64,000 bases of DNA from NCBI GenBank assembly GCA_030068145.1, contig JAPJBO010000372.1:77284-141283 (forward strand), given 5' to 3'. Both the position numbers and the translations under genes were made by a program. This document shows, in pieces, positions 410 through 58,629 of this stretch; the first letter of the stretch is position 1, and the number at the start of each line of letters is the position of its first letter. The notes under the pieces are model-generated. The model saw nothing but the letters and a program-made list of their open reading frames with translations, ran no database searches and had not been told where the DNA came from. The stretch is from Diplonema papillatum (Eukaryota).

Positions 410-976
410 ATTCCCGAGGGGCCTTGTTGAAGTCCCGAGGGGCCTTGTTTAAGTCCCGAGGGGGGCCTTGTTGAAGTCCCGAGGGGGGCCTTGTTGAAGT
501 CCCGAGGGGCCTTGTTGAAGTCCCGAGGGGGGCCTTGTTGAAGTCCCGAGGGGCCTTGTTGAAGTCCCGAGGGGGGCCTTGTTGAAGTCCCGAGGGGCCT
601 TGTTGAAGTCCCGAGGGGCCTTGTTGAAGTCCCGAGGGGCCTTGTTGAAGTCCCGAGGGGCCTTGTTGAAGTCCCGAGGGGGGCCTTGTTGAAGTCCCGA
701 GGGGCCTTGTTGAAGTCCCGAGGGGCCTTGTTGAAGTCCCGAGGGGCCTTGTTGAAGTCCCGAGGGGCCTTGTTGAAGTCCCGAGGGGCCTTGTTGAAGT
801 CCCGAGGGGCCTTGTTGAAGTCCCGAGGGGGGCCTTGTTGAAGTCCCGAGGGGCCTTGTTGAAGTCCCGAGGGGCCTTGTTGAAGTCCCGAGGGGGGCCT
901 TGTTGAAGTCCCGAGGGGCCTTGTTGAAGTCCCGAGGGGGGCCTTGTTGAAGTCCCGAGGGGGGCCTTGTTGAACA
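410..976. repeat. Minisatellite, about 25 tandem copies of a 22-24 bp unit CCTTGTTGAAGTCCCGAGGGG(GG)
   Basis: The periodicity is visible directly in the sequence and the G-run length varies between units. The overlapping minus-strand ORFs 288-977 and 307-1020 are translation artefacts of the repeat. Confidence 0.95.
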
Positions 977-1816: not shown

Positions 1817-4800
1817 ATGGATCGCCAGGACAAGGTCGAGAAGGTGTTCCGCTTCTTCGATTGCGATGGCGACGGGTTGTGGTCGTTCGAGGAGGCGAGC
1901 GCCGTGCAGCGGGAAACGGAGGGCACGGTGCTGGAAGGCGACCAATGGCTCGCCGTGTGCGACTGGCTGGGCGCCGAGTCGACCGGGCTGACGCTGAAGG
2001 ACGTGATCCGGCTGTACGCGGACAAGTCGTTGGCGAGCATCGACATGGACTGCGAGATCGTCGAAAGGCTGGCGGGCCGGCTCAACTCACCGTTGGTGAC
2101 CCCGGCGTCCCCCGCACTCTCAACAGGCGGTCGCTCCGAGCGCATCGTCAAAGCCTTCTGCTCCGCATTAGACGACGTCCAACGCGTCGAGTCGCACTAC
2201 GCCGGATTCCACTCGACGGGCAACATATCCCCGCTGCGGTGCAGCGCGAAGGAGTCGGGGTTCCACTTAGAAGCCGACAACGTGTCCCACATATCCGTGA
2301 CGTCCCCGTCCGCCCTTTACAACGACGGCGCCCCGTCGCATTTGAACAGCCCGATGTCGAAGCACACGCAGTGGATCGTCGTGCCGTGCGATGACATGAC
2401 GCAGTCGGTCGCGTTTTGGGACTCGAGCACCGGGAACCTGGTCGAATTCTACGCCGCGCGCTCCGAAAAAAAGGGCCGCGGGCTCTTCGTCCGGGTGCAG
2501 GCGAACAACGCGGTCGGCAACGAGAGCGAGACCGAGTTCGGCGAGCCGGTCTTCTCGCTGCAGTCGTCGCCGCCGACGCCGCGCCGCGGTAGCACCGAGT
2601 CGCCGGACTGCCGGTGCCGGCCGGCCCGCGTCCGCCACCTGCAGTACTCCGCCGCCGAGGGGACCCTCCGCGTCTCCAAGAACACGGTTCTCGCGCTTCC
2701 GAAAAAGGTCTCGTCGAACAACGCGCGCCGCTGGTCTACCCACAGCGGGATCGAAGACCAGGACGTGCACCAGCTGTTGTACCGCCTTGCGCTCCTCTCC
2801 GACCGATGCTCCGTCTCCCACAACCTGCCGATCGTCGGCGCCCTCCACGACGAAGTCAACGCACTGCGCAGGAAACTCGCGTGCCTGGAAGCGCAGTGGG
2901 ACACCACCACCGGCGTCCTCCGCAAGATTCAGCACGCCCTCGACAAGGAGCCCGCGAACGGCACCCGCAGAACGTCGTCCGACTCCTCGGAGCAGGGAAC
3001 CGAGGCCCTGTCCCGACGGGGGACCACGTGCGCGAATCTGCAGGAGTACTTGAAGCGGCATATCCTCGCGCAGACCGCCGACTCGTCGGACGACCTGCTG
3101 CACACCGTGCGGAAGCAGGCGGCGGGGAAGCCGGCGGAGATTCCAGCGTGCGATGCGACCCTGCCGCAGGTGCCGCGGACTGCCGAAGGTATGGACGAGC
3201 CGGCCGCTGGGAAGGATGTGTCCTCGTCTTCCGACGCGGGGCCGCCGAGCCGGCGGCAGCTCACCGCGAAGCGGCGTGCCGGCACCGAGGCGATGCTGCA
3301 CCTCGCGTCGAGCCTCGCGAAGCCGCGGCGCGCGGCGTCGCGCGGCCAGAACGAGCCGTTCAGCGACAGCTGCAACACCGACAACGGCGCGCCGCTGTCG
3401 ATGGAGGGCAGCACGCAGCAGCTGCAGCAGCAGCAGCAGCAGCCCCGCGCCAGGGCGAACAGCGAGAAGCTGTACGCGAAGCCGCCGATAGACGGCGAAG
3501 ACGCCACGGCCACCACGTCGGGCGCGGCGTCGCTGCAGTCGCCGTCGTCCTCCCACGGCGGCGCCGGTTCGGGCCGGGGCTGGTCCACTGGGTGCCCGCA
3601 GCGGGCCGTCCGGCGCGCCGCCAGCGACACGCGCATCGGCGGCAACGGGGGGGAAGCGCTGCGGCGCGGCGGCAATGGCGGGCACAAGGGCCCCAGCGCG
3701 CCCGCCGGCGGCGCCGGCGGCGGCGCCAAGCGGTGCAGCTCGGACCGCGGGTTCGTGCTGGGCGGCGGCCCGGGCGGTGCGGCCTGCGCCGGGTGCGCGA
3801 AGCGCGGCGGCGACGCCGCCGGGTTTTGGAACCTCCTGGGTGCCCCGAAGATGCAGCTGCTTGGTGGCAGCGGCGGCGGCGGCTGCAACGGGGTCGCAGA
3901 CTGCGGGCTGGATGGGGAGAAGGGCGAGTCCGAAGTGGAGGAGGGTCAGCAGCAGGCGAAGCTGGGTCGCCGGCTATCCGCCGACGACGCGGCACGGGCG
4001 TTGAAGGTCGCCGTCAACATCGGCAGCTGCTTCGGCGAAGCCGCACCGTCTCCCATCGTCGCGCGCCGGTCGAAGTCGACTGGAACCGCCGCATCGCCCC
4101 CCGCCTCCTCCCCGCCCGCCATCCTGCCCTTATCCGAACTCGTCGAGGACATGCGCGTCTCCCGCCGCCAAACAGCCGACATCACCACACCCACCCCTAC
4201 CCCGACCACGACCCCCAAGCAGCAACTTCCCCTGCAAGCTGCGGGTAACACTCGGTCGCCAGCGGAGGAGCCCTGCGACATTGTCATCAGCGTGACGAGC
4301 AGCGACACCGTTCTTTTCCCGGGGGGCCGCCGTGGCGACAAGCCGCCCTCCCAGGCCGGGAGCAGAGAGCCGGCTGCCTCGGGCGAAGATGCCGGCGTCC
4401 GCCGGGCGTCGCTGTCGATAGGCGGGGCCGTGGCGTCGCTCGCGGGCAGCGAGCACCCGCTGCACACGTCGCCCTCGTCGCAGTCGAAGGCCAGCAGCCG
4501 CTGCTCGGGCGACAGCGACGCGGCGCAGTCGCCGCCGACGCCGGCGGGGCACGTGCGGGGCAGCCCGCGGTACAGCTGCCTGCAGCCGGAGAACCCGAAC
4601 TTGTTTTGCCCCCCGTCCATCAACCTCACCGACAGCGGCCACCCCCGCCCGCACGGCCGGTCGGACTGCAGCAGCAACGACAAGCCGCACTCCAGCCCGG
4701 TCAAAGGGCCGAACTCGCCGTCCGACGGCCCGCCCCTCCACCGCCGGTTTCCCTCCAACGACTTCTCCGACCCGGAGATGCCGTCGGCCAGCGCGTCTCC

Positions 4801-7288
4801 GATCACGAACCACATCCCGTCTCCCAACACCCGCCTGCACACCGCGCTAGACCCGGCGCTGCTGCAGCCGCCCAGCTCGCCCGAGCCGCACAAACCCCTG
4901 CACTTTCGGACCGACTCGCGGGAGGACGCTTTCGGCGTTCCGTGCCGGAAGACGCTGTCGCACTCCGACGCGTTTTCGCTGTCCGACACGCGGAGCAAAG
5001 CCACATTCCTTGCCTTCGGCCGCCGGCACTCGCGGGATTCGGTGAACGAGAGCCTCTTCCGCCCCCCCGGGTGCTCCTTCGCCTCGCACGCGGACGACCA
5101 AGGGAGCCGGTCGCCGCTGAACGACTCGCGGAAGAACCGCCGGTCGACCAGCGTGTACACCACGCCGGAAGTCTTCTGCCGGAAGCATTCAAGGGACAGC
5201 GCTTCGGACAACCTTTTCCGGCGGCCGGGGCTCGACGAGCAGGGCCTGCGCTCGCTCAACGAGTCGGGGCGCACCGACAACTCGGTTTCGACGATGAACG
5301 AAGGGTACGGCAGGCGGCCGTCGCGGGATAGCGTCAACAGCCATTCGCTTTTCCACCCTCCCGACGCGAGCTCGTTCTCCCTCCACGACTCCGGGAAGGC
5401 TTCGGGGGTGGGGAGTGTCTTCGGTCGGAGGCTGTCGCGGGACAGCGCGCACGACGATCGCCCGAAGGGGTGGACTACCAGGCGGCAGCCGCAGCAGCAG
5501 CAGCACCACCACCGGCGCGAAAAAACCCAGCGGCAGCAGCAGCAGCAAGAGGAGCAGCGCGCTGGTTTGCAGATAAAGCCGCCCCCGGCGCAGAAGGCGC
5601 TCAGCAACAGCAACCGCAGCGCGAGCGACGCGGCTGGCACCGCGAGCGACCTGGTCTTCACGCAGGTCAACTCTCCGGTGTGCGCCGCCGCCTCGTCCGA
5701 CGCCCGCTCGTTCGACGCCAAGACCAGCAGCAACAACCCCATCAACGTCAGCACCACCCGCAGCAGCAGCAGCAGCAACATCGTCAGCAATACTGACAGC
5801 AACATCAACAACAACAACAACAACACCAACAACAACGAAAGCGGCAGCAGCGTCAGCAACATCATCGGCAACAACGACGGCGGCGGCAGCAGCGCCAGCA
5901 AGCCGCCGGCCCCGTCGCGGCACGCCCTCGCCGCAGAAGCCCTGCTGCGGGAGACGGCGTCCGACGACGACGTGTCGGGGCGGCTGGGCGGCAGCGAGGT
6001 CTTCCTGTCCTCGCTGCCCAGCGTCGACGCGGGGCTCGGCTTTTTTTTCGCGCAAGGCCCCCCGGAGACCGGACGGGGCGGCGGCGGGTACCCCCGGCTG
6101 TCCGTCGATCGGGCGTCGACCCCTAGCTCGTCTCCTTCGTCTTCTTCCTCTTCGAGCAGCTCGGAGGCGTCGCTTTACGACACGCTGGCAGCGGCGTCGC
6201 ATTTAGAGCCGACCCTCTCGAGCGATAGCCACCACGGCCACAACTTCACGATCGACGACAAGGAGAGGACGTTGCCGGTGTGCCTCCACGTGTTCCCGGT
6301 CGTTGATCGCCCGCCGTGTTCAGACAGCAATTTGTCGCCGGTGCTGAGCCCGCACGACGGCAACAGGCGGCGTTCGTCGGCGACCGACGACGCACTGGAA
6401 GCGCCGAAAATCGACCCGTTCAGCCCGTCGTACACGATGATCACCGCCCTCACGAGCCCCTTCGACAAGCACGCCCTTGACCACGCGCCCGCCCACGACA
6501 TGGAGCGAGACGCGTATCTCGGCAGCCCGGCCCAGGCCAACAGCCCGCAGCGCAACGGCACCAGCTTCGCCTCCCGCCCGGCGGCGCGGACTGCCACCGC
6601 GGCCAGCGCCGCGGCGCATCTCCCGTCGCTGCTGCAGGCCGCCGCGCTGGCGACGCACCCGCTGCCTGAAGCTGCCGATTCGACGTCGAGCGAGACGCTG
6701 GGCGGCGGCGGCTCCCGGCGCAGCTCGGCTGGACCAAGCCAGCCCGGTGACTGCGGGGTGGAGCCGTCGGCGAAGGACGAGCTTTCCGACCCGGACGCCT
6801 GCAAACCGGGCGTCGATCACTTCGCGAAGCTTCGCGCGCGGGGGTGGCAGAGCTCGGGGCAGGCGCCGGAGGGCGGCGCCGGCGACGGGCGGAAGCGGAA
6901 CTCGCTGGCCGTCGTGGCACCGCACGCGGCCGGCGAAGAGTGCAAGCTCGGCCGCAACGGGGCCGGCGGCGAGGGCGCGAAGGGCTGCAAGGGGGCCTGC
7001 CGCCGCAGCAGGGTCACGTGCGGTCCGTACGCCGTCGCCTTCGGGCCCTGCTCCCCGCCGACCGACGGCGGCGGCGGCGGCGGCGAAGCGACGCCGGTGC
7101 CCATGCGGGTGAGCATCGGGTTGCCCGCCCACCAGCGGGCCCCAGTGCAGCTCAAAGTCGACACGGGACACGGCCCGCTGCTGTTCTCCCTGCGCGTTCT
7201 GCCGCCGCGGAAGTTCCGGGTGAAGCGGACCACCAAGCGCAAGCCCGCGCAACCGCAGCCCGAGGAGGAGGCGGAACCGGTGGGATAG
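1817..7288 (+). CDS. Very large (1823 aa) low-complexity protein with an N-terminal EF-hand; an internal block carries four RRxSRDS repeats
   Basis: There is a true ATG at 1817 in an A-rich context (aaaataagaATGG). The ORF runs 5.4 kb without stops and has strong third-position G/C bias (tcg, ccg, gcg, acg, aag, gag, cag). A canonical EF-hand loop D-C-D-G-D-G-L-W-S-F-E-E lies at about 1838-1909. Poly-Q, poly-A, poly-G, poly-S and poly-N tracts are present. Four copies of [FY]GRR[HPL]SRDS...LF[RH]PPG occur at about 5014, 5175, 5305 and 5419. Undetected introns cannot be excluded. Confidence 0.8.
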   Translation: MDRQDKVEKVFRFFDCDGDGLWSFEEASAVQRETEGTVLEGDQWLAVCDWLGAESTGLTLKDVIRLYADKSLASIDMDCEIVERLAGRLNSPLVTPASPALSTGGRSERIVKAFCSALDDVQRVESHYAGFHSTGNISPLRCSAKESGFHLEADNVSHISVTSPSALYNDGAPSHLNSPMSKHTQWIVVPCDDMTQSVAFWDSSTGNLVEFYAARSEKKGRGLFVRVQANNAVGNESETEFGEPVFSLQSSPPTPRRGSTESPDCRCRPARVRHLQYSAAEGTLRVSKNTVLALPKKVSSNNARRWSTHSGIEDQDVHQLLYRLALLSDRCSVSHNLPIVGALHDEVNALRRKLACLEAQWDTTTGVLRKIQHALDKEPANGTRRTSSDSSEQGTEALSRRGTTCANLQEYLKRHILAQTADSSDDLLHTVRKQAAGKPAEIPACDATLPQVPRTAEGMDEPAAGKDVSSSSDAGPPSRRQLTAKRRAGTEAMLHLASSLAKPRRAASRGQNEPFSDSCNTDNGAPLSMEGSTQQLQQQQQQPRARANSEKLYAKPPIDGEDATATTSGAASLQSPSSSHGGAGSGRGWSTGCPQRAVRRAASDTRIGGNGGEALRRGGNGGHKGPSAPAGGAGGGAKRCSSDRGFVLGGGPGGAACAGCAKRGGDAAGFWNLLGAPKMQLLGGSGGGGCNGVADCGLDGEKGESEVEEGQQQAKLGRRLSADDAARALKVAVNIGSCFGEAAPSPIVARRSKSTGTAASPPASSPPAILPLSELVEDMRVSRRQTADITTPTPTPTTTPKQQLPLQAAGNTRSPAEEPCDIVISVTSSDTVLFPGGRRGDKPPSQAGSREPAASGEDAGVRRASLSIGGAVASLAGSEHPLHTSPSSQSKASSRCSGDSDAAQSPPTPAGHVRGSPRYSCLQPENPNLFCPPSINLTDSGHPRPHGRSDCSSNDKPHSSPVKGPNSPSDGPPLHRRFPSNDFSDPEMPSASASPITNHIPSPNTRLHTALDPALLQPPSSPEPHKPLHFRTDSREDAFGVPCRKTLSHSDAFSLSDTRSKATFLAFGRRHSRDSVNESLFRPPGCSFASHADDQGSRSPLNDSRKNRRSTSVYTTPEVFCRKHSRDSASDNLFRRPGLDEQGLRSLNESGRTDNSVSTMNEGYGRRPSRDSVNSHSLFHPPDASSFSLHDSGKASGVGSVFGRRLSRDSAHDDRPKGWTTRRQPQQQQHHHRREKTQRQQQQQEEQRAGLQIKPPPAQKALSNSNRSASDAAGTASDLVFTQVNSPVCAAASSDARSFDAKTSSNNPINVSTTRSSSSSNIVSNTDSNINNNNNNTNNNESGSSVSNIIGNNDGGGSSASKPPAPSRHALAAEALLRETASDDDVSGRLGGSEVFLSSLPSVDAGLGFFFAQGPPETGRGGGGYPRLSVDRASTPSSSPSSSSSSSSSEASLYDTLAAASHLEPTLSSDSHHGHNFTIDDKERTLPVCLHVFPVVDRPPCSDSNLSPVLSPHDGNRRRSSATDDALEAPKIDPFSPSYTMITALTSPFDKHALDHAPAHDMERDAYLGSPAQANSPQRNGTSFASRPAARTATAASAAAHLPSLLQAAALATHPLPEAADSTSSETLGGGGSRRSSAGPSQPGDCGVEPSAKDELSDPDACKPGVDHFAKLRARGWQSSGQAPEGGAGDGRKRNSLAVVAPHAAGEECKLGRNGAGGEGAKGCKGACRRSRVTCGPYAVAFGPCSPPTDGGGGGGEATPVPMRVSIGLPAHQRAPVQLKVDTGHGPLLFSLRVLPPRKFRVKRTTKRKPAQPQPEEEAEPVG

Positions 7289-7700: not shown

Positions 7701-10700
7701 GCCTCGGCTGACACCATTTGCGTACTTAACCATGGTTAAGAAGACGACTGAAAGCATAGACACAAAGATAGCTCAACGCATCTGCAGAATAACGCGAAAA
7801 GCCGCTAGGCAAAAACCCGTTTTCACATCTCTTTGCTTTGAGCTGCGCGAAGGAGTAGCGACAATGCAACATTCGTCCATCCACGACTGGCTGGCATCTT
7901 CCGACGACGAAAACGAGAGACCAACGCCCGCCTCCAACCAGCCGGTGTGTCTCACTGAAGACACGAGAGGCGATCCGGCTGTTATTCTAGCTTCGCGTCC
8001 TGCCGTCACGCAGAATTCGAATGACACGGATCAAAACCAGCGGCAACCTGCCTTGGTGCCGCGAAACTGAGGGCGGGCGCTCCCCGCCGAAAAACCTGGG
8101 GAACACTGCAGAACATAGGCCAGTCAACGGCCTGTTGCTCGTCGCGTGCAATCAACGAAATCAATCAAAAGCGTACTCCTATGAACCGAGCGCGGGTGAG
8201 TGAGATCTTGAGAATTGCCGACAAAGGATTGGCTAGGGCGCAGACTGCCGGATCTCGGGCTTATCCAGTGGCGGCACTACGACCAATTGCCGACCAGGCT
8301 GCCGTCCACGAAATGGAAGCTGACTTGAATTCTTCAAGTACCGTCTGTAAGCAACGCGATGATGATGATGCGGCTGCATCAGCATCATTGTGTTGCTCAT
8401 GCAGTCTCAAGATCTCACTCGTGTGGCGCACCGGCAGTCCTTGGACTGAGTACGATGCTGGGCCTACTGCAAGAAGACGTCTTGTTTGGATATGGCGCAT
8501 CCGACGAAACGACTTACGCCGGGGGGGATGGAGTTGTGCGAGGTGACTGGAAGCACCGGCCGGCGTTGCTGGCCTCCCGCTCACCACACCCCTTTCTCCC
8601 GTACACTGAATCGCTGATCCTGAGGGGAAACGGCGCAGAACGTGTTCGATTCTGAAGTATATTTATCAACAGTTGGAACATAGCATCGTTTCCTGTCTCA
8701 CCAGTATCAAGCAACCAGCAAGCCCACGAGCCCGGAACCCAGGATGCAAGAGTACCTCTTCCCCCCATTTTCATTTACCACACGACCCACTAGTTAGTGA
8801 AATAGTTATGTTCTGTTGGAGAAAAGCATTCCTACTTGCGCCGTGGAAAACGATAAGGCTGCGTTCAACTAACGACCGACATAGTCCACTTTTCAAAACG
8901 TTCACGTCTTCATTCATCATGAAGAGTGAAGAGCGCCGAGTTCTCGTAGTTTTTTTCTTCAAGGGAGTCAAGCGTGTCAGGCACATTTTTTTTGGCTCCC
9001 ATTTGCTCTGCTGGTGGCAGGAAATAGCGCCTCAGGCAGCAGAGTCTGCCATTCGAACAGCATTTTGCTCGCGCACGGGCTAGTAAGGACGGTTTCTCCA
9101 ACGCAGAGTATTTGTTTTCTAGTGGGTGGGCTTTGGGGGGTTCGGTCGTTTGCTGCATCTCTGAAAAGGTTTTGGCCTCGCGTTCCGGGCAACAAACAAA
9201 TATTGTACCATGTCAACAAAGCTCGCAGAAAATATTGGCGTACTTTGTGCAGACGCTCCCTTTTTTCTTGCCAAAGAAACATCACCAGCTTTCTGCGGCT
9301 GGAGATCACCGTGTAGAAGGTATTGCCCCACCCCCAACGGCATGACACCAGCGCGCATGCATGACATTCGCAGTTTTTTCTTACTCGCTCACATTCAAGA
9401 AACCGACCACCAACCCGTCCCAGTTAAGTAACACACTTGCGTTCCGAAAGCTCCGAAATAGTCAGCGAATATAGTGAAAATAAAGAGAGGAATTGGCCGG
9501 GAAAGGGCAAAGAAGGAGCAAGAAAGAATCGATCGACATCATACTTTGAAAACCGTCACCGAAAACGATCTTTCGCCTTCTAGGGCGGGAACGGAATGCA
9601 CCAAATTGTTCAATCCCACGTTTCTTCGGTGCTCCCGCTGCAGATCCAAAGCACGGCAGGAGAAGGAAGTCCGATTAAATAGTATTCTCGGGTTCAAGTC
9701 ATACTGTCCCCCCACTACAGCACATGTGGGAAATCGTACATGGGGACACGCGAAACCCCCACTAAACTTGTCACACGAATTTCTACGAGTATTTCCTCAG
9801 GTGACTAACGGGAACGATCGTATCCTCGTATGTGTGACTCGTTTGGCGAGAAGTTGCTTCGGAGACCAGAATAACAGTTTTGACGAGGATACAACTCGTA
9901 TGCACTGTATGCCTAGGTGTCCGAGGGGGTTTCCGGTCCGGCATTATTCCGTTCCAGCCTTCGCCCGGTTCAACTTTATTCCGATTCCGGCTTTCAAAGG
10001 AAACTGTAACAAAGCGACAATTGAAGAGCTTGTCCGACTGCGAGAGACAGACGACAGGGACGTCGAGCGGGCAACATGCTGAGAAGTGAATTGATCACCC
10101 TGTATAGAGGGACTGAGCTTACCGCTGGCAACGGGGGGTTTTCTTCCACAAGCAGAGAGCGAGTCGCCGCGCACCTCCTTCAACAAAAGCAAACAAAAAA
10201 AAAGTCGCATGAACAACTTCTCGTCCCTTGGGATCGGGGTAGCACAGAACACACACAGACTGAGGCGATGCATTCACAATGGTCAAAACGGTACGAGTGA
10301 AAGAGACGGACATCACGGTGGCTGAGAAGTGATTGGAGAACCGCGTACGGAAAGAGTGAATTTATTCCCGTCACACCCGATACAACACGCACCACTCGAC
10401 AGCGCTCAAAACATTTTCTTTGCACCCACTACCAGTTGGCCGGAAACCATAACATACTCCCCGTGTATCCACCACCTTCAGCATCAGCGTAGCGAATAAA
10501 AGCGAACTTCTACTCTCAAACCAAGTCAACGCTCTATTGGGGGTCCTTGTTAAAACGCGTTAGGGTTGTTTTCTTGCCTCTCCCGCCCCCCCCGTAGGCG
10601 GGATTCAGGGCAGTCCACGGCGTCTCAGCTTTCTGACAAAAAGTCGGTCACAAATTGTTTCGAACCTGCCCGCCTAAGCGAGCAAGTAAAGTGTACACGA

Positions 10701-11136
10701 AGAAGCCCGTGAAGTTGGAAAGGAGGACCCCGAGAGAGGGGTTGAGTGACGTAGAGACTCTCGTGTTGATGAATTCCGTGGGGTCGGCGAGGAGAGCACG
10801 GAGACAAAGACGAATAATTACTCGTGCACGTCTTCTTGGCGGATAGTCACCTACCGTGAAGCCAAAGCTCGAGAGACTAGCAGCAGCGGCCTTTCGCACT
10901 TTTCCTGCCTTTGCGGTTGGTGCAGATGCCTGGGTCAGCAACGATTCTGGCACTGTATTCACTGGTGCAGGGGTCACTTCTGCTGTCTCCCGAGGCCGGA
11001 CTTGCACGGGAACACGCGATTGCAAAAGAGGTTTATCATCAAGAGATGAATCGTCGTCGTCCGCCGAAGAAGTGTCATCCACCGAAGAGTCGCTCACGTC
11101 GCTGTCACTGGCTTCATCAGCCGACACGCCAGCTCA

Positions 11137-11165
11137 TCATCATCATCATCATCATCACCATCCTC
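11137..11165. repeat. (CAT)n microsatellite, about 9 units
   Basis: catcatcatcatcatcatcatcac; it produces a His10 tract in ORF 10856-11200, which I judge non-coding. Confidence 0.9.
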
Positions 11166-11299
11166 TTGGTTCATCACAGGTAGTTGCAACAACATACTGA
11201 ACCAACCAACCATTGCATCGTTGCATTGTGTCCTATAGTTGCACTACTGCTGCATACGCAGTTCAAACCTATGGTTTGTTACTCCTATCGTTGCACGAC

Positions 11300-11472
11300 A
11301 TCGCATCGTTGCACTACATCGTTGCACTACATCGTTGCACTGCATCATTGCACTGCATCGTTGCACTGCATCGTTGCACTGCATCGTTGCACTGCATCGT
11401 TGCACTGCATCGTTGCACTGCATCGTTGCACTGCATCGTTGCACTGCATCGTTGCACTGCATCGTTGCATGG
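11300..11472. repeat. Tandem array of a 13-bp unit GCATCGTTGCACT, about 13 copies, with inverted partial copies at 11495-11522 and 12266-12286
   Basis: Perfectly periodic array. CAACGATGCAACGATG (the reverse complement of the motif) appears at 11500-11522, followed by A15 at 11524-11538, and again at 12266-12286, just 5' of the retroelement ORF. Confidence 0.9.
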
Positions 11473-12458
11473 TTGCCCTATGCCTACCATAGTGAGCAAC
11501 GATCATGCAACGATGCAACGATGCAAAAAAAAAAAAAAACTCTCGCTCTACGCGTTCGCAGTCAGCTACCGGAGGACAAGTGCGCTGAATGGGCAACATG
11601 GGCCCTACACGCAGTGGGCAAGAAGTGAAGACAGCGGCAGCAACCCCTCAACCGGCAACAACATGATGAAGCAGTAGACACACCGCGTTCGTTCCCAACA
11701 CCCCGGCCAAGCAATACCAACACCCCAAGAAGTACTACTCTCGCGGTACCCAACTTCCCCCAACACCCTTGCGCGTCAAGAATCCTCCGAGTCCTCGAAA
11801 CTCCCCGCTATCAGCGGACATCCTGCACATCATCATCACCAACTCTCTCGTGCACCAGCCTGCAAACATCCCCTCAGCTCCGCCATCGCTACGCTCTGTC
11901 ACTCGCAGTCCACCGCAGCAGATCAGCAGCAGATAAACCCCCCGCTTTCAAACCCCTCTCCTGGCCAAGCAACCGTTTCTTAGCCCCAGACGCTCCGACC
12001 CAATCACCATTCCCTCAACTCCCTCAGGAATCAGCACACCTCCCAACCTGCATCATCCTTATTCAACAGAAGTTCGCGCAAACCATGGACCAAATCAGCC
12101 TCCCCCGCACTCGTCCGCAGCTCCGCCATCGCTCCGCTTTGGAAACCGCAGACCATCGCAGCAGATCAGCAGCTACTGTAAGTGAACTAATTCAAACAAC
12201 TCAATGAACGCCGTCACAGGCAACTGACTGAGCGAATATCGCCGGAAACACAAAAAAACCCATGATTTCCTGCAACGATGCAACGATGGTTAGGGATATG
12301 TGCGGAAACGTGCCAGGCGGACCGAGCTAAGAGAAAGCGGGTTTTTTAGAGTTATAGTTCGCTTGAGAATCCGGGATTTTAGAGTCTCCGGGTGACCTTC
12401 GTCGAATGGGCTCTTGTAAAGCTAATACGTACTGGGTGGGTTTGGGGGGGGGGCATGC

Positions 12459-15400
12459 ATGAGGTTTCAAGACAGACGACCCCGGAGCCGGCCCCTCCGC
12501 CCGAAGACTGCCCGTGTCAAAAGTATCTGCTGCAAGGATACCACATTCAAGCATGCGTGTGGGCAAGCACACCTCCTCGACACCTGCAGCGAACTAGTTA
12601 CGTTCTTCGACAAAGGTCGCAAGTTCCGCCCGGATGGCGGCGACGAAGCTATTTGTACTGAAGTGGATAGGGCGGTGGCTTTGTTCGTCGAGGGGTACAT
12701 TAATGACTCCCCGCCTAGTTTCGCCAGACTGCTGCGGCAGAAGATAATGTCGACCGTCGGCGTGACGCGTATTGGTGCCGAACCGGAGGTGACAACCACA
12801 TCGCGTCGACGCCTGCGAGAACTGCACAAGGACCTCGTAATTCTCCCGGTCGACAAGAGTTCTCACGACTTCGGGTTCGTGTGTAGAAGATTCTACAACC
12901 AGGATCTGTACACGAAGGTTAACCACAGCGTGAACTACGCCCCGAGCGAGAAGACACCGGAAGAAGTCGTAGCAGATCACAAGACGTACCTGGAGCAAAA
13001 AGGGCTGAGCCCCACGAACACCCTCCCCTACCTTTATGGCACCTTGAAACTACACAAGGAGGTGATAACCATGCGGTACATCGCCGGGGTCTCCCGCAAA
13101 AACACTGTGGGCCCGGGGGAGACTTTTCCTGAACGCGAAACACGCCGCCCCGATGCAACATTTTCATCGACGACGGATGCACAGCTGGATCTAACGGGTC
13201 TGTTGAAATCAGTCATGGAGATCCTACGGAGGGAGGACAACGACCGATTCAACGCGACCGGGTTTAGATTCTTCTGGATCACGGAGTCCAGTGACGACAC
13301 CGCCTTCTTTCTGAAGACGCATGTTGACGAGCTCTCGGGCCTGGTCGCGGGTACATGGGATTTCACGACCATGTACGACCAGCTGGGACTCGAGGAACTG
13401 CTGGAGGAAATCGCTGGTACCATCGACGAAGCCTTTGCAGCGGAGGCCGAACGGCTCGGCGTTCGGGTTGATGAACTGGTCCTAGTACGACCGAAGAGCC
13501 AACATGGGCCGCAGAAGAAGAAACGTTGTTTTGCGTTCATGCTGTTGACGGATCTGAGCTCACAGCAGGCAGCATATTCTGCACACGACCTCAAGGCCCT
13601 CCTCGCTTTCTGCCTGGCGAACACGTACGTACTGGTGAACGGCATCCTCATGCGGCAAATATTGGGCATCCCGATGGGCGCTAACGCCTCCCCAGACATT
13701 GCCAATCTCTTCTGCTACGCAAAGGAGAAGAGGTACATGATGAGACTCCTGGCTGAAAGGGACATCCGGCGGGCTACACTCCTCAGCATGACGCGCCGTT
13801 TTATAGATGACCTGCTCTGTTTCGGGACGAAACCCCCTCCCGAGTCCATCTACAGCATGGGGTACAAGCAGACGAATGCATGCGTAGGGGATGCGACTTT
13901 CCTTGGCATACGGATACGACATGAGGTCTCCGGCGCGTCTGGAAGGCGATACATGCGACTGTCGGTCTTGGACAAGGCGAAAGCCTACCCGTACCGCCCC
14001 CTCGCGTACACGTCAGTCCTGTCTACGGCCCCGTCAAACTTCGGTTCGAGCATCCTCATTGGGGCCCTCGTTCGCAACGGTAGGATCGCCAACAACATAT
14101 ATGATTTCAAGACCGAAATGAACAACACGGTCTTGAAACTCATGCGGCGTGGTTACCGGAAAAGCGTTTTGAAGAGTGGATTCCGCAAATGGCTCCTGGA
14201 CACATACCCAGAGGCCAAATTTGGCGAGCATTGCGGGAAGGTGCGGAGGCACTTCTTCTGGCTCATTCACGAGGTGGAACGCACTCTATCACTGCCAGAG
14301 CCGGCCGCGATGGACCTTGCGATCGAGCGCCTTCTGGCTGAAAGACCCTTCGTGAAATACAATGGCCGCCCCCAACCTGTCCCGGAAGCTGAAGATGACG
14401 CCCCCCGATCACCGCCCACCGAAGCACCGACCCGACAGGCTGACACGACCGCCCCCCGTGAGTCCACGCGGAAAGGCCACAAGCGAAAGGCTGAAGAGGA
14501 CGAACAACGGGCTTCAAAGCGACGCCGCTCGAATGTCCACAAACCGGTTCTAACAGTTGCCCCTCCATCCACGTGCTACCGATCAGTCGTTTGTACACAC
14601 CCGCCTTCCGTGAGGCATGATCCGACGCTGTTTGGCCCCGCCGGCCTCCCGAATCTGGGGAACACGTGCTTCTTTGGTGCGGTGCTGCAGCTCCTGCTAC
14701 GGGTTGGGCCGATCAGAGAGATGTACTGGAGCCTTGCGCAGGACCTCCCCAACTGCCGTGGATTTCTCGGGGACTTCCTGGCTTACTTTGCCATGCTGTC
14801 AAGCTCTCGCGACAGTGGTGACCAGCGTAGCCGGGATTGTCGGAGAATGGGTGTCCAAGCCATCCTGAGCATGTTCGCAAACTTCTGCGATGCACGGCAG
14901 CACGATGCGCACGAAGCTCTGGTAGCGATACTCAGCGCGACTAGTGCGACGCTGGGTCCGGACGAAACGGGGACCCCCTGCCCGGGCTACCAACTCTTCG
15001 TAACATGCTTGGAGAACGGCTGGACCAGCTCAGTACGATGCAGTGCATGTGGACGCACTTCTTCCAGCAGTCAGGTAATGCAATGTTTGCAAATTCCTTG
15101 CGGAAGGAAGCTGGAAGACTCTCTCCACGTGCACGGGTTTGTGAATCCGGAGAGAGTATGCGACTGCAAGGCTGTAGGTACGGTGGTTGAAAGCATGGAT
15201 CTCCGTCTGACAGCTGAATGTGTTCTGATGCAGTTTGGCATCTACACGAGAAACGGTGCCAGGCGCCAGAATGACGTGAAACTGCCCCCCTTCTTCGGAC
15301 CGCCGGACCATCTGCTACGCCTCGCAGCCGTCGTGGTGCACATGGGGGAGGATACGGCTAGCGGGCACTACGTCACGTACGTTGCGCAAGACACGGGGTG

Positions 15401-15845
15401 GATCCTCTTCGACGACCTGCACGTCACCTCTGTCGACGACATTCCGTGGGGTGACGTTTACCTCGCGGCCTTTGTCCGGATCCCCCGGAATGCCCACGAC
15501 ATGACTGTCCGTGCCCCGTCACCCTCCATGGTGCTTCCCACTCAGGATCGGCTACCCGACTTGCCTGCACCCCCAGGTTCAGCCGGTAATTTGATGAGCC
15601 GGCAGTCGGAAGGATCACCTGACTCCTTCTGCCCCTTTGGTAATTCGCCACCCTGCCCGCCCTTGCCGGACTCCCAATGTCTGACACCGCATGGTCAGTT
15701 GTTTGAACAGCAGTTAACAGGTTCCCCGGTGCTGCGATGTCAACACTGCTCCGTCGAATGCACGAAGGATGGCCAGACGTTCCAAGGTCTGAGGGGACTC
15801 CGCGCGCATGAGAGACGTTGCCACCTCGCGGGTGTGAGATTCTGA
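12459..15845 (+). mobile_element. Retroelement ORF (1128 aa): Penelope/TERT-like reverse transcriptase fused in frame to a ubiquitin-specific protease (peptidase C19/USP) domain and a C-terminal C2H2-like zinc finger
   Basis: True ATG at 12459. RT motifs 1/2, YLYGTLKLHK...MRYIAG, at 13026-13094 (compare PLE YGLPKIHK...PLRPIVS and TERT RFIPK...RPI). Motif A, WDFTTMYDQL, at 13359-13388 (TERT-like D-x4-YD). Motif B', GIPMGANASPDIANLFC, at 13668-13716. Motif C, RFIDDLL, at 13800-13811. USP Cys box GLPNLGNTCFFGAVLQLL at 14640-14697, QQDAHEF-like box RQHDAHEAL at about 14897-14923, and His box AAVVVHMGEDTASGHYVTYVAQDTGWILFDDLHVTSV at 15330-15440. CQHC-x18-H-x4-H at 15738-15824. Codon usage is less GC3-biased than host genes. 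Confidence 0.8.
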
Positions 15846-16194
15846 TCCGCGTCGTTTGAGCCTCATCGGGTTCTTGATTGCTGGCTGGTCTATGTTTCAC
15901 TCCGCACCCGTTTACCCTGACTAACGGGAAAAACTCGAAGTGTCTGTACGAGTGAACGCACACTAACATGAGAGGATGAAGGCACGTATATGCCGCCTGG
16001 CCCTGTGCTAGGCGTAGTTTGAGGTTGTACTTATTTCCGAACAACCTACCACGAGCTTATCCACCCACACCTCCATTTTTCCCCTTTCTTCTTATTTACT
16101 TTTTCCCGCCCGATGTCGCTGATGACTAACGGACCGTCGGACCCGTCCCAACGGGGGTGCTTATGGAAGCTGCAATGAAAGCTTAGACCGGAAC

Positions 16195-16310
16195 GGGCTA
16201 CATGGCAACCCCTGCTCAACATGTAGAACGTGGGGGGCCCTTGATCACATTCATTACGGGTGTGGTCGTGGTGTCGGTCGCAATAGTCGCTTTGCTAGCC
16301 AAAGAGAGAG
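16195..16310. repeat. Dispersed repeat family F, copy 2
   Basis: GCAACCCCTGCTCAACATGT...CGTGGGGGGCCC...GGTGTCGGTCGCAA, shared with 18355-18520. Confidence 0.6.
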
Positions 16311-16494
16311 ATAGAGAGAAAAAGAGCGCCAGAGAGAAAAGAAAAGATAACGTTATCTTCCGGAAAAGAAGGGTTACGCGAACCCCCGAAAAAATAATTA
16401 CCCCCAAAATATACAGAAAATAATAAAAACACAAACCGACGGTGACCCCCAAAACCTTTTTCAACCTTTCCAACACCCTTCAAGCTAAACCATT

Positions 16495-16525
16495 ATACAA
16501 CGACCCCCCCCCCCCCCCCCCCCCA
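16495..16525. repeat. Homopolymer C run (about 24 C)
   Basis: Direct observation. Other G/C runs of 10 or more lie at 7393-7403, 12441-12453 and 18052-18064. Confidence 0.9.
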
Positions 16526-16769
16526 CACGGAGACACTAACACCCCGGATCCCCACGCGAACTTCCAATCTGAAAGTAAAAGCACGTGACCGAAAAAAAGG
16601 ACCCCACTTCGCTTCAACGGGTCGACCGTTTTCAAACAAGGGCTGACGACCCCCTCTTGCCCCGAGGAAGAAGTCTTGCGACGACAACAACATGGCTTTT
16701 CAAACTCGGCGGGTGGCCCTAGCGCGCGCCCGTTGACCTGGCGTCAATACGCGCTTTACGAAGCGTGAG

Positions 16770-16915
16770 CATGTCTGTGCGAGGCATACCCAATACACAC
16801 AACTGTGCTAGGTCTACCCTCATCTGTGCCAGGCATGCGTCTGTGCTTAGCATATCCATGTCCGTGCTAGGCATCCACATGCCTGTGCTTGACATACATA
16901 CTGTGCTTATGCGGT
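16770..16915. repeat. Degenerate minisatellite, unit about 19-21 bp (CTGTGCTAGGCATNCNCATG), about 7 copies
   Basis: Recurrent CTGTGC(T/C)(A/T)GGCAT blocks. Confidence 0.6.
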
Positions 16916-17169
16916 GGCAAGCGGTTGTCGAAGCAAACAAACGCTGACGCCCAACTGCCTCCAACTGCATCAACCGCTTTGTTCTACTCAGCTCGGGACG
17001 ATCCTGCCCTCCTCCCCTCTTCAACCCGGCCAAACGGCAACAGCATGTGCCAGACTAGCCCACCCAACAAGGGGAGGTATGCTCCTTTTGGCAGGTTCTC
17101 TGCCGTTCTGGGGTCGCTGCCGCCTGTGTTTGTTTTCGTTCTTATATTTTTTTTCTGGCGGAAGAAAGA

Positions 17170-17465
17170 AGAAGAAAAAGGCCGCTCCTGGTCCAGGAAC
17201 GTGACGGTCAACCACAGCTTGCAAAACTTGAGTCGGAGGCAGCACAGTGCCACAACCCCGCGGGGGTCCGCTCTGCCCAGTGGCTGACCGTCTCGACGAG
17301 CTTGTGCTCAGCGCGAGCGCCAAGCCCCAAGGTGCGCCAAGCCTTTGGTGCTTTTCTTTGGGAAATTGGTAGAGCCACTTGACCCGGAGGCCCGTGGCTC
17401 TGCAGTACCGCCGAACACGTGAAGCTTGGCTCCCGTGCAGCAGGCTTTCCCTGGTACCTTTTTGG
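17170..17465. repeat. Dispersed SINE/MITE-like repeat family A, longest copy; core ...CCGTCTCGACGAGCTTGTG(C/T)TCAGCGCGAGC...CCCAAGGTGCGCCA...GGTAGCCACTTGACCCGTAGGCCCGTGG.TCTGCAGTACCGCCGAACACG.GAAGCTTGGCTCCCGTG.AGCAGGCTTT
   Basis: Other copies or fragments lie at 18055-18240, 22470-22556, 29118-29240, 37195-37290 and 39170-39335. The 5' module GGCCGCTCCTGGTCCAGGAACGTGACGGTCAACCACAGCTTGCAAA.CTTGAGTCGG is shared by 17170 and 39180. Confidence 0.8.
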
Positions 17466-18054
17466 CGGAGAAAAAAAAAGGAAGGAGAGGAACCAGAACT
17501 GACGAAAAAGTAGTTCGTGATTATCATGTACTCAACCGGACAGTAGGGCAATGCGGTCGGCTCTTTGCTTCCTTCGTGATTTGGACGCCGGTTTATACCA
17601 TGCGCCAGCCTCAGAAGCACTTTCGCGCGGACTGACCTGAGCGGTGCAAGAGTTAATCACCTTGCTCGCAGCTCTTCGCATGACTTTCCGGAGGACAGTA
17701 CCCGAAGAACAGCACTCGGCTGAAACTATTGAGCTTGCGCTTCTTACCAGGGTCAGCAGCCATGTTGGTGAAGTCGAACGCGCTGTGCTATGATTGCAAC
17801 CAGAGCAAGAGAGAACAAAAGCTCTGCAAAGGCCCCAGCATTACCAGTACTAATCGCCAACTACTTTCTTTCAAATTCTGCTTCCGTTGCCGTCCACGTT
17901 GGCTCCCAGCTGAGGGGCAGGACCTCGGACCGGATAAATTCCTCCGACTCCTCGGAGAAATTCCTCCGGGGCCTTTTTCGGCTTTTTACCTTGCGGAATT
18001 CCTCCGCTTTTTTCTGTTGGCGATCTTCGTAGTACCGCGTCAGCGATAGGATGA

Positions 18055-18240
18055 AGGGGGGGGGGGGACCGTCTCGACGAGCTTGTGTTCAGCGCGAGCA
18101 CCAGACCCCAAGGTGCGCCACGCCTTGATGCTATAGTTTGGTAGCCACTTGACCCGTAGGCCCGTGGATCTGCAGTACCGCCGAACACGCGAAGCTTGGC
18201 TCCCGTGTAGCAGGCTTTTCCTGGGTCGAATAATAGCACC
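18055..18240. repeat. Repeat family A, copy 2
   Basis: About 85-90% identity to 17290-17460 by eye. Confidence 0.8.
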
Positions 18241-19494
18241 TGTGTATTCTTCGATTTGTCGAATAATAACGCTAATAAAAAAACCCTCCCCACCGCACGT
18301 CCTCCTCAACCCAACGGAAGTAAGAACGCATATTACAGACCGATACGAGCTGCATGCAGCAACCCCTGCTCAACATGTGCTCGCCTGCCTTGATGGCACT
18401 TGCACCTTAAAGAACTCAATGCTCAACATGCATGCGCGTGGGGGGCCCAAGACTAAATTCAAAGCGAATTTCTTCTTGGTGTCGGTCGCAACACTTACAA
18501 ACATGGCTAGCCGTAATTAAAGTGTATAAGCATACCTACTACCCTCATACTACCCGCCTCACAGCCTCAATGGTCAACCGGAGACCCTAAAACACCGAAC
18601 CTCTAAACACAATAAACGCTAAATAAAGTTCCGGGCAGCCGAACAGTAGCAGGATCGAGTGGTAGTGTTTTTAGACAACCAGACGTGTGTCAAAAAACTG
18701 TTATTATTCGACCCCCCCTTTAAATGAACGAAGCGAAAAAAAGAAACGGATCTGGCGCTTCCTGTTTGTGCGCATTTACGTGGAAGCTTACGAGAAAAGA
18801 AGACAGAAGAAAGGAAAAGGAGTATTATTAGCGCGATGTTGTAAAGTGCCAAAGGAGTGAATATACTGCTCTCTCCTCCCCACAACACGCTGCACTGTTT
18901 TCTCTCTTCGAGTGTACATTTCATTGTCACTGCGAAAGGAAGTCTAATACCCCAGGGGTTAAGCTACGGGGATCCAACGGAGTCCAACGGACCCACAAGC
19001 AAAAAACGAGAGTCTAGTAAGGGGTCCATGGGGTCCGGCAACTCCTGCCAGGGTAAGCATGCAAACCGGAGCCGGTCCCCTCAAACCCGAAAATCCAGAA
19101 CTTCTAGAATAACCCGTGGAAAACGGGGGGGAAAAAAAAGAATCAACAACACAGAACTCCGGTGTGGAGCCGAGGCATCCGTATCTCTTGGAGTTGCACC
19201 GCATTTCCAGTCAGGTGTTTACAACCTTGGGTAAACCTTTCGTGTTCCAAAGGCGCGCGGATGAGGCGAGTCTGGTGAGCGAATTCAGGGCGCGAATCAC
19301 CCCCTGGGTGAAAAGTCAGCCCCAAAACCCTGAAGCGCTTCTGCTCAACCCACGTAGATGTGATTCATGTGAAAAGGAAAAGAAATGCGCACCGACGAAA
19401 AACAAGGACCCGCTGCTCTCCATTTTTTTAAAGTAAAATAGGAATACAAAACCACGCTCTTTTTTTTGGATGGATCAAGTGCGTACCCTCGCCT

Positions 19495-28800: not shown

Positions 28801-29571
28801 CTTCGTTCGATCAGTCATGGCGACAAATACACTTCTTTTGACGCCCACAGCCACCGACGGCTGCCCTGGCGGCCTCGGTTTGGTTAACACCCTGCTTCGG
28901 AATAAATTAGCAGGCATTGGTCTCCACCTGTGTTCTGAGGCGTACTTTTTCGTTGTCGACAGCGAACAAGTGACAGGATACGAAAGAAAACTACGCATAT
29001 CTTTCCGACACGTCAAATTGCTCTCTCTCTCTCTCCGTTGAGTGCGGGTCGCTTGAGTTTGCACCGGACAAGAGCCCACCGCCAGCCGCAAGCATGCAAA
29101 ACCTGCGTTCAAAGTTAGCTCGTACCACGCTGTGGCTGACCGTCTCCACGGGCTTGCGTCCAGCCAAACCCCAAGGAACGCCCCCTTGATGCTTTGGTTT
29201 CACTAAATCGGTAGCCACTTGACGACCCGTAGGCGGAATCCACCTCCGCCCCTACACACATCCCCCCCCAAAAAAAAGAAGGAAAAGTATCAAAAAGTAA
29301 AGCAAAAAGACAGTTGCTTTTAATTATTTCACTATAATAACTCTCAGTCTAGTTATGGTGCGAAGAATCCATCAAGATAACCCAACCACTAGAAGCAAAG
29401 CAGCTGCGAGGCTGCATGTATGGTCGCTCGCTGGAGGCAGGCTACTGGATTCCGTTGGTCTGTTGTCCCGTATTGCTGTCGCCAGCCCGGTCTAAGCCCC
29501 GCCCACGTTCCCTGTCAAGTGAACAACTCTTGGCAAATCTACTTGTCTAAGTTAGGGAAGAGCCATCACAA

Positions 29572-39169: not shown

Positions 39170-39335
39170 AAGAGAAAACGAAAAATAAAAAGGCCGCTCC
39201 TGGTCCAGGAACGTGACGGTCAACCACAGCTTGCAAAGCTTGAGTCGGCTACAACCCCGTCCGCTCTGCCCTGTGGCTGACCGTCTCGACGAGCTTGTGT
39301 TGAGCGCGAGCGCCACGCCTTGATGCTTTAGTAGC
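39170..39335. repeat. Repeat family A, copy with the 5' module
   Basis: Shares GGCCGCTCCTGGTCCAGGAACGTGACGGTCAACCACAGCTTGCAAAGCTTGAGTCGG and ...CCGTCTCGACGAGCTTGTGTTGAGCGCGAGCGCCACGCCTTGATGCTTTAG with 17170-17340. Confidence 0.75.
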
Positions 39336-41605: not shown

Positions 41606-42223
41606 ATGGGCGCCGACCGAGGCCGGTGGGGGGAACTGAGCGCGTGGTGCCTGGAGAGCGGCGAGGGCTGGGATTACAGGAAGGCGGGAGAGGGTGTCGC
41701 GAAGGCCGCCGTCCGCAACGCGTTGGAGGGAGCCGGGCGGCGGGAGAAGGGGAGGAAGTGCTGGTCCAGGGGGGACGGCAGTGCGATGGGAGACTCGCTC
41801 CCGTCGTCGGCCAGGAGCATCGGGAACGCGCGGGCGTCGCTGCCCGGGGCCCGGATCACGGCGGAAGCCGTCTTCAAAGTGCAGGCCCGCCACCGCAGGG
41901 CCGAGGAGCAGTTCCGGAGGGAGAACGAGCAGTTCCTGCAGCGGGAGATCGAGCTGCAGCGGGCGCGGTTGGAGAAGCGGATCGAGGCGTCGCGCGCGCG
42001 GCTGCACCGCAGCCGGTCGCCGCCGATGCCATCTCGAGACTCCGACGACGGCCGCCTGGCGTCGGCGAGGACAGCCGGCGGGGGGCCAGGGCCGCGGGTC
42101 ATCGAGTACCGGAACCACCGCCTGCTGCCCACGGGCAAGATCACCAACCACGCGGGGCCGCCCATCGAGAAGCGGAGGCTGCACGTGGTTCCCAGGACCG
42201 ACCTCATGCCGACGCTGAGGTGA
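41606..42223 (+). CDS. Exon of a hypothetical coiled-coil protein (205 aa ORF) ending at a canonical 5' splice donor
   Basis: True ATG at 41606 with GC3-biased codons. The ORF ends ...CTGAG|GTGAGAGG at 42221, a donor-like site. The segment RRAEEQFRRENEQFLQREIELQRARLEKRIEASRARL is a heptad-like coiled coil. Confidence 0.6.
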   Translation: MGADRGRWGELSAWCLESGEGWDYRKAGEGVAKAAVRNALEGAGRREKGRKCWSRGDGSAMGDSLPSSARSIGNARASLPGARITAEAVFKVQARHRRAEEQFRRENEQFLQREIELQRARLEKRIEASRARLHRSRSPPMPSRDSDDGRLASARTAGGGPGPRVIEYRNHRLLPTGKITNHAGPPIEKRRLHVVPRTDLMPTLR

Positions 42224-42261
42224 GAGGGGAGGCCGCCTCTTTTTTACCCTTCCCGCGTGTG

Positions 42262-56329: not shown

Positions 56330-56874
<545 letters not shown>

Positions 56875-57065
56875 TTGCAGTTTACTGAGGGAACTGGAGC
56901 AAGACGCATGGCTAGACGAGCACGACCACCTCGAATCGACACCAGAAGAATTCGGGGTGGGGCTGGCTTCGACGACTAGTAATATCCCGGTAAATGGTAG
57001 CACTCCTGAACAAGCCTGAACCAACAGGATCAAAGAATGTCAGTCACACCTTCCCGATTCTTTTT

Positions 57066-57278: not shown

Positions 57279-58629
<1,351 letters not shown>

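Follow-up and report, generated by a model that had tools for sequence, protein, structure and literature searches.

The stretch of DNA considered here is a 64,000-nucleotide segment of the Diplonema papillatum genome (assembly GCA_030068145.1, contig JAPJBO010000372.1, forward-strand positions 77,284 to 141,283), which we call the window. Positions 12459 to 15845 of its forward (+) strand contain an open reading frame (ORF) of 1128 codons with no internal stop. An original prediction, made from the sequence, held that this ORF joins in frame a Penelope/TERT-type reverse transcriptase (RT) to a ubiquitin-specific protease (USP) domain; the uninterrupted ORF, all of the RT motifs that it quoted and its three USP boxes are present as claimed. 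As described below, the ORF is most probably the 3' part of a truncated copy of a Penelope-like element (PLE), a retrotransposon whose complete protein begins with a GIY-YIG endonuclease (EN). All features of the ORF discussed below lie on the + strand, and residue numbers are those of the ORF product unless they are assigned to another protein.

The C-terminal half of the ORF product matches the Pfam UCH family (PF00443) across amino acids 729-994 (E = 6.5e-21; 75.5 bits versus a curated cutoff of 23.9), and the PDB sequences that the ORF matches are those of USP12, USP36 and USP46. An AlphaFold2 model of amino acids 708-1128 has a predicted local distance difference test score (pLDDT) of 73.7, and Foldseek comparison of this model with the PDB returns USP21, USP4, USP12, USP46 and USP36 with E-values of ~1e-19. 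The catalytic domain (peptidase C19), delimited by Pfam, fold and conserved residues, spans positions 14643..15440, and its boxes lie in the following order: the Cys box with the catalytic C737 (amino acids 729-746; 14643-14696), a QQD-like box (813-821; 14895-14921), the two halves of the CxxC/CxC zinc ribbon of the finger subdomain (860-867 and 900-907; 15036-15059 and 15156-15179), the His box with H970 (959-975; 15333-15383) and an Asp box, FDD, with D986 (981-989; 15399-15425). With Cys, His and Asp/Asn boxes in order and a modelled fold that agrees, the assignment of this half to the USP/UCH peptidases is unambiguous as far as sequence and model can make it. The same fold, Cys/His/Asp boxes and zinc ribbon are found in cellular USPs (USP12/46, USP36, USP21 and USP16-like), but the element domain is ~20-25 % identical to these and differs from them in being the C-terminal part of an EN-RT protein that has many near-identical dispersed copies. 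The USP is separated from the RT by a disordered basic and Pro-rich spacer (14355..14603; pLDDT < 40 in both models), in which KRKAEEDEQRASKRRR is a possible nuclear localization signal. It is followed by a zinc finger that was originally thought to be of the C2H2 type and is in fact CCHC, C-x2-C-x19-H-x3-C (amino acids 1094-1121; 15738..15821), modelled as beta-beta-alpha.

The N-terminal half gave no RT match in a Pfam scan even at E ≤ 10, so of the two Pfam matches that had been expected, PF00443 was strongly confirmed and PF00078 was missing. A nine-sequence profile searched against the PDB sequences likewise found no RT or TERT and gave only a weak match to the GIY-YIG domain of UvrC. The RT is thus identified from structure prediction and motifs. 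The 13 best Foldseek matches of an AlphaFold2 model of amino acids 32-707 (pLDDT 74.7, predicted TM-score 0.71) are telomerase RTs (7qxa_A, 1.2e-10), and group II intron RTs come after them; the model supports the view that this half is a TERT-like RT. It occupies positions 12552..14333 (N-terminal extension, fingers, palm and thumb) and includes the GxKF/Y motif GRKFRP (12615-12632), the DK motif VDKSSHDFG (12849-12875), RT1/2 (13023-13088), motif A, WDFTTMYDQL (13356-13385), an insertion that resembles an insertion-in-fingers domain (IFD; 13386-13655), motif B (13656-13712) and motif C, RRFIDDLL (13794-13817). A CxC motif, EDCPCQKY (12509-12517), lies just before it in the frame of the truncated 5' end (below). 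The key residues are invariant in eight homologous sequences that range from 22 to 98 % identity: Y191, Y193, K197, H199, R206, I208 and G210 in RT1/2; D301, F302, M305 and Y306 in motif A; Q400, G403, G407, S411, P412, A415 and N416 in motif B; and R447, I449, D450 and D451 in motif C. Upstream of these, D132 and K133 of VDKSSHD and the G, K and R of GRKFRP are invariant, and the cysteines of CxC (C388/C390 in the numbering of the full-length protein described below) are at least 90 % conserved. In a larger alignment of 110 homologous RTs, every sequence has kept the Asp of motif A, the Gly of motif B and the Asp of motif C. The first two of these lie 101 residues apart (65-111 in the homologues; median 92, n = 110), and the model shows a helix, a beta element and a helix between motifs A and B, a pattern consistent with an IFD.

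What is the complete element of which this ORF is a part? A tblastn search of the window with the public D. papillatum protein KAJ9462254.1 (P0001 here; 1499 amino acids, named 'putative ubiquitin carboxyl-terminal hydrolase 16') showed that codons 32-1128 of the ORF correspond to amino acids 403-1499 of that protein with 99.45 % identity. The order in the full-length protein is GIY-YIG EN, KR-rich block, CxC, GRKFRP, VDKSSHD, RT, disordered spacer, USP and CCHC finger. The EN is recognized by Pfam (PF01541) at amino acids 86-129 of P0001 with 22.6 bits, which is exactly at the cutoff, and PF01541 is also found in the related proteins P0002, P0011, P0218, P0156 (29.4 bits) and P0235 (28.6 bits). 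The KR-rich block, LAKKKKSAARTP, lies between EN and RT in P0001, P0002 and P0003, and is missing from the truncated window copy.

The RT-USP junction is indeed shared by other copies in the genome, as had been proposed. Family 1 (the 90 % cluster of P0001) includes at least 11 full-length 1499-amino-acid models on different contigs that are 99.7-99.9 % identical; they differ pairwise by 2-5 residues, and one sequence is identical on four contigs. Two further families have the same layout, namely family 2 (P0002; at least 8 models of 1414-1485 amino acids, 63-67 % identical to family 1) and family 3 (P0077/P0218; 1412 amino acids, publicly named 'USP26'), and the public annotation calls members of all three USP16 or USP26. 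Between families 1 and 2 the identity is 78 % in the EN, 75 % in the RT, 27 % in the spacer, 60 % in the USP and 36 % in the tail. A subfamily of 1146 amino acids, P0003/P0039, is 90 % identical to the window family and is present at two loci with 99.9 % identity; in it an in-frame deletion has taken out nearly the entire USP, joining ...YWSLAQ to GLRAHERRC. Large pieces of the element are also present within the D. papillatum gene models P0005, P0012, P0034 and P0074, annotated as Rrp12, a Mg/H exchanger, V-ATPase subunit a3 and kinesin-like protein 3, and these are probably annotation chimeras that arose from intronic or adjacent insertions. The element is a multi-copy, recently amplified retrotransposon of D. 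papillatum. The original prediction had named genome copies without the junction and a failure of the HMM searches as findings that would count against a fusion; the junction is carried genome-wide, the USP HMM match is strong and the RT is supported structurally.

The window contains one large copy of this element, the 12459..15845 ORF, and that copy is defective. Its homology to the element starts at ~12461, directly 3' of a run of ten G residues (12444..12453), and everything before amino acid 372 of P0001, the EN included, is gone. Positions 12461..12551 encode, in a frame different from that of the long ORF (tblastn, reading of the DNA and translation), EVSRQTTPEPAPPPEDCPCQKYLLQGYHIQ, which is amino acids 372-401 of P0001 (EVSRQ...EDCPCQKY...HIQ in the true frame), and a 2-nucleotide deletion after 12551 joins the element frame to the long ORF. 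Codons 1-31 of the ORF are therefore an out-of-frame reading of the element, and the first 31 residues of the 1128-amino-acid product are meaningless. The window copy is 5'-truncated, frameshifted, non-autonomous and, having lost its EN and acquired the frameshift, dead; it is also very young, which is why its RT-USP part is still open.

As judged from the window DNA, positions 15846..16503 (+) are presumed to be the 3' untranslated part of the element. They run up to a C21 tract (16504-16524, followed by ACAC) 660 bp past the stop codon. Chlamys elements, to which we return below, are reported to target (C)n (PMC8557442), but nine homopolymer runs of the G10/C21 type are present in the 64-kb window, and the C21 flank can be called suggestive only. 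At locus L001 a C11 run was seen ~1 kb beyond its ORF. A 93-nucleotide inverted fragment of the same element lies at 10708..10800 on the - strand; it encodes RALLADPTEFINTRVSTSLNPSLGVLLSNFT, amino acids 341-371 (30 of 31 identical), and so stops exactly where the forward copy starts (amino acid 372), 1.66 kb upstream of that copy with unrelated DNA between the two. It is in frame with an acidic, Ser-rich ORF at 10648-11127 (-), and the arrangement resembles what a 5' inversion like those of twin priming, or else an inversion of local origin, would leave. An upstream repeat of the element's 3' region, which would be a sign of a pseudo-LTR, was looked for in the window and not found. An intron at the amino acid 371/372 boundary was considered and rejected, since P0007 and P0010 are single ORFs that read through the homologous junction and since the upstream window piece sits on the opposite strand. 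The interval between the inverted and forward pieces also contains a (TCA)n run (11134-11162), an A15 run (11525-11539) and 12.8 copies of a 13-bp tandem repeat, GCATCGTTGCACT (11287-11469), which gives rise to spurious miRNA-like Rfam matches.

To which PLEs is this element related? The original prediction assumed that the EN of a PLE is either C-terminal to the RT or absent; this is incorrect, because PLEs with an N-terminal GIY-YIG have been described (PMC8557442), and the Diplonema element is one of them. The features diagnostic of these N-terminal-EN+ Naiad/Chlamys PLEs are an N-terminal GIY-YIG, a KR block, the motifs CxC, GxKF/Y and DK, and an RT whose motifs A and B are set apart by a long insertion, together with the lack of a hammerhead ribozyme (Craig et al. 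2021, PMC8557442). Pseudo-LTRs, partial copies in tandem or inverted orientation, and microsatellite targets, (C)n or (CA)n, are further traits of this clade. The Diplonema family resembles Chlamys/Naiad in the following respects: it has a single ORF in which, in full-length copies (the truncated window copy being without it), the GIY-YIG is N-terminal to the RT, followed by the KR block, CxC, GxKF/Y and DK motifs, a TERT-like RT that is closest to TERT and a long A-B insertion, and an Rfam scan of window positions 9000-19000, which hold the truncated copy, found no hammerhead ribozyme. The 5' truncation is another likeness, being frequent in Chlamys/Naiad. The GIY-YIG core of P0001, GLIYGLVDSHANLLYIGKTGKTMQERVAKHW, contains no Cys, and upstream of it there is one Cys and no CX2-5CxxC finger; an EN that lacks both the CCHH motif and the upstream finger is, by its sequence, of the Chlamys type. 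The canonical C-terminal-EN+ PLEs (Penelope/Poseidon, Neptune, Nematis and Hydra) were considered and excluded, as here the GIY-YIG is N-terminal and it is a USP and a CCHC finger that follow the RT. The same two domains set the Diplonema element apart from Chlamys/Naiad. It differs from TERT in being multi-copy, in having an endonuclease and in having no TEN or TRBD domain detectable by Pfam, and its RT is that of a transposon and not a telomerase.

The hosts of N-terminal-EN+ PLEs that are given in PMC8557442 are green algae, spike mosses, a slime mould and invertebrates, with no mention of Euglenozoa or Diplonema. In the Diplonema genome paper 12 transposon subclasses are given, none of them PLE; LINE, LTR, SLACS, TATE, MULE and Helitron-type ORFs appear there and in the supplements, whereas Penelope and GIY-YIG do not.

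Is the USP peculiar to Diplonema? An exhaustive HMMER search gave 2613 matches (82 of them with E ≤ 1e-30), nearly all of the best 150 through the RT region, and EN-RT-USP and RT-USP proteins were then found with local domain HMMs and Pfam. Such proteins occur in ~8 further lineages that are less than 50 % identical, in marine metagenomes and a probable euglenozoan genome. A Pfam UCH domain after the RT is present in P0001, P0002, P0218, P0007, P0013/P0040, P0084, P0092, P0080, P0227, P0156, P0235 and P0233. P0007, on a Tara Oceans contig, is one ORF of 1662 amino acids with the end of an endonuclease just upstream, where it is cut by the contig end. Like P0007, P0013 is a single uninterrupted ORF; it and a USP-less relative, P0010, are on long contigs of assembly ERZ25333236, and the tandem FCaBP-like genes among the neighbours of P0013 suggest a euglenozoan host. 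P0084 and P0092 are on ENA contigs larger than 1 Mb; P0080/P0223 are 1635 amino acids long, P0227 is 1365 and P0235/P0241 are ~1313. P0156 (1279 amino acids) has Pfam matches to GIY-YIG, RVT_1 (weak) and UCH (1.6e-29). Some of the RT-USP proteins of these further lineages are uninterrupted ORFs that come from prokaryote-style gene calling.

The catalytic Cys and His, with an Asp or Asn in the third position, are kept in 12 of the 12 lineages, and the zinc-ribbon cysteines are likewise retained in them. The 12 USP domains are mutually 20-28 % identical, about as distant from one another as from cellular USPs, with P0001/P0002 (60 %) and P0013/P0084 (36 %) as the exceptions, and USP similarity follows the RT clades. 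The closest non-element USPs are ~25 % identical (E ~1e-6), and a word-indexed search with the USP by itself recovered remote cellular USPs only. A profile search with the 12 EN-RT-USP proteins was dominated by Diplonema copies and gave no further named taxa. One high-scoring match, P0083, was set aside as unrelated; it comes from a mammal assembly and consists of ten USP domains in tandem. Because the same domain order and the same catalytic residues recur in ~8 more lineages, the RT-USP fusion is an inherited feature of the element and not a chimera, and the sequences, the lack of a close cellular USP included, indicate that the USP was acquired long ago, once or more often, that element lineages have since passed it on vertically and that the protease is under purifying selection.

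The CCHC finger is placed before or after the USP according to lineage, and one to five copies of the motif are present in each of P0001/P0002, P0007, P0013/P0040 and also P0010. It is therefore an independent module, and it probably binds nucleic acid or a partner.

The above observations are best explained, with a probability that we put at about 0.8, if the window has a young, truncated copy of a multi-copy PLE of the Naiad/Chlamys type, with the ORF as its 3' 3.4 kb, and if the USP is an inherited and selectively maintained module shared by an entire group of these elements in diplonemids and in other, mostly marine protists. Several points weigh against this explanation. An unbootstrapped neighbour-joining tree places the USP-bearing elements in two separate RT groups, and the USP-less relatives P0010 and P0082 (a Lacrimia lanifica transcript) sit among the USP-bearing ones. 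The USP-deleted P0003/P0039 subfamily has been copied, so copying does not depend on a USP in cis, although the USP may work in trans. Deubiquitinase activity is predicted from the fold and the conserved residues, and membership of the Naiad/Chlamys clade is proposed from the diagnostic motifs and architecture and not from an RT phylogeny.

P0010 has no USP in any frame of its locus, L003. The same locus has, 2.4 kb downstream of P0010, a tyrosine-recombinase (Phage_integrase) ORF at 11707-12723 that may belong to a DIRS/TATE-like element. Other USP-less relatives, those of the P0014 cluster (GIY-YIG plus RT; 1422-1446 amino acids), fill whole ~6-kb contigs in several metagenomes. A fragment of that cluster, P0045, is MCP4902536.1, which was deposited as a protein of a bacterial metagenome-assembled genome and looks like a mis-binned eukaryotic transposon.

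How might such a protein work? If the element behaves as PLEs are known to do, its GIY-YIG EN would nick the target, and the RT would copy the element RNA into the nick by target-primed reverse transcription, often halting early; premature termination of this kind would explain the 5' truncation of the window copy. The USP is most likely an active hydrolase of ubiquitin or of a ubiquitin-like modifier. Its target could be the element's own protein or ribonucleoprotein in cis, or ubiquitylated targets of the host, factors or chromatin, where the element integrates; either way, its action would keep the retrotransposition complex from being degraded or restricted in a ubiquitin-dependent manner. 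The CCHC finger would probably help in binding nucleic acid or a partner.

The protease might instead act on the element itself, cutting its polyprotein (to free EN-RT from the C-terminal part, for instance) without any role on host conjugates. Among viruses, papain-like proteases with a USP-like fold also process polyproteins, and the long disordered spacer between RT and USP would suit such a cut. However, cellular USPs depend on the ubiquitin fold to bind a substrate, no ubiquitin-like domain (PF00240) was found by Pfam in any element protein, and a site search showed that a ubiquitin-like [LIVMR]xGG site is absent from the window family and from most of the other lineages. We consider self-processing unlikely. 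That the RT-USP proteins are a domesticated multi-copy host family, immobile USPs with an RT-derived N-terminus, is a good deal less probable; the public USP16/USP26 names and the intact ORFs would agree with it, but the near-identity of copies spread over many contigs (99.7-99.9 %), the 5'-truncated copies such as that in the window, the many fragments in other gene models, the intact catalytic residues of both EN and RT, and homologous families that fill whole metagenome contigs of ~4-7 kb all speak for mobility.

Nor do we think that the USP is a decaying passenger without function for the element, an idea to which we give slightly less weight still. A USP-deleted derivative, P0003/P0039, has been copied at least once and USP-less relatives exist, as such an idea would have it, yet triad and zinc-ribbon cysteines survive in 12 lineages whose USPs are mostly 20-28 % identical, and between families 1 and 2 the USP has kept 60 % identity against 27 % for the spacer and 36 % for the tail. 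That a retroelement landed in a host USP gene here, or took up part of one, which the original prediction gave as its alternative and which the single copy in the window might bring to mind, is scarcely credible given that the identical junction recurs in 11 or more further copies, in another two Diplonema families and in ~8 other lineages, and given no close cellular USP in D. papillatum or elsewhere (~25 % identity, E ~1e-6, at best).

We return to the proposed reading, a selectively maintained USP module in a Naiad/Chlamys-type PLE, and to the relation of this module to proteases already known in mobile elements. Chlamys elements take up accessory domains, among them PHD, SAP and Josephin-like domains (PMC8557442). 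The nearest parallel is Chlamys-1_cBra of Chara braunii, whose ~1800-amino-acid protein has a C-terminal extension with weak similarity to Josephin (the MJD family) followed by a Cys/His-rich motif (PMC8557442). It has the same order of RT, deubiquitinase (DUB) and Cys/His motif as the Diplonema element; its protease is weakly Josephin, whereas that of the Diplonema element is clearly USP/UCH, and as these DUB families are unrelated the two acquisitions were independent. Josephin or OTU domains are also present in Dualen/RandI and other non-LTR elements, and OTU domains in Helentrons, where they have been proposed to interfere with protein degradation. These too are mobile-element proteins fused to DUB-type cysteine proteases, but they belong to APE/RLE non-LTR elements or DNA transposons, the DUB family is another one, and the protease is usually N-terminal.

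Searches of open-access full text yielded no account of a retroelement, PLE or other, with a USP/UCH domain (Repbase and subscription journals lay outside the search). The novelty that had been claimed for the protease is thus upheld for the USP itself and not for DUBs as such, since Josephin and OTU DUBs are known from retroelements, including one Chlamys PLE. What is apparently new here is the USP (C19) as a retroelement protease family, conserved in ~12 deep lineages, and the host group; the PLE class and the theme of a retroelement with a DUB were known already. It is tempting to go further and to see in these elements an old, widespread and previously undescribed group of USP-bearing N-terminal-EN PLEs in diplonemids and marine protists, in which an active USP is part of the retrotransposition machinery and which represents the first retroelement USP, acquired independently of the Josephin/OTU modules. 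We offer this wider proposal tentatively and with less than even confidence in the whole of it. If such an old USP-PLE group exists, ubiquitin-dependent control would be a general pressure on retroelements that has repeatedly been met by DUB capture.

The findings extend the N-terminal-EN PLE clade to the Euglenozoa and show that the model diplonemid has a PLE family which amplified recently. They would make the USP a third, unrelated DUB family recruited by retroelements, and with them the idea that retroelements manipulate the ubiquitin system of their hosts can be tested in a protist that can be cultured and transformed. There is also a practical consequence for annotation: dozens of D. papillatum 'USP16' and 'USP26' models, as well as several chimeric models, are transposon sequence, and these mislabelled models, the chimeras and the bacterial metagenome deposit will distort gene-family and DUB inventories.

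The remainder of the window contains several features that are separate from the element. Pfam found no domain in the ORFs at 1817-7288 (+), 53242-55731 (-), 41411-42649 (-) and 47437-48639 (+). The first of these, of 1823 codons, lies in DNA of 65-70 % GC after a 21-bp tandem array of 26 copies at 412-974 (+). A dispersed repeat of ~160 bp, 70-85 % identical between copies, is present at least 5 times in the window (17286-17454, 18067-18224, 39177-39319, 37192-37266 and 29138-29234). Finally, a 2.3-kb (ACT)n microsatellite of ~758 units (86 % matches) at 56330-58629 accounts for the low GC content (0.39) and the extreme GC skew (-0.57) of that region.

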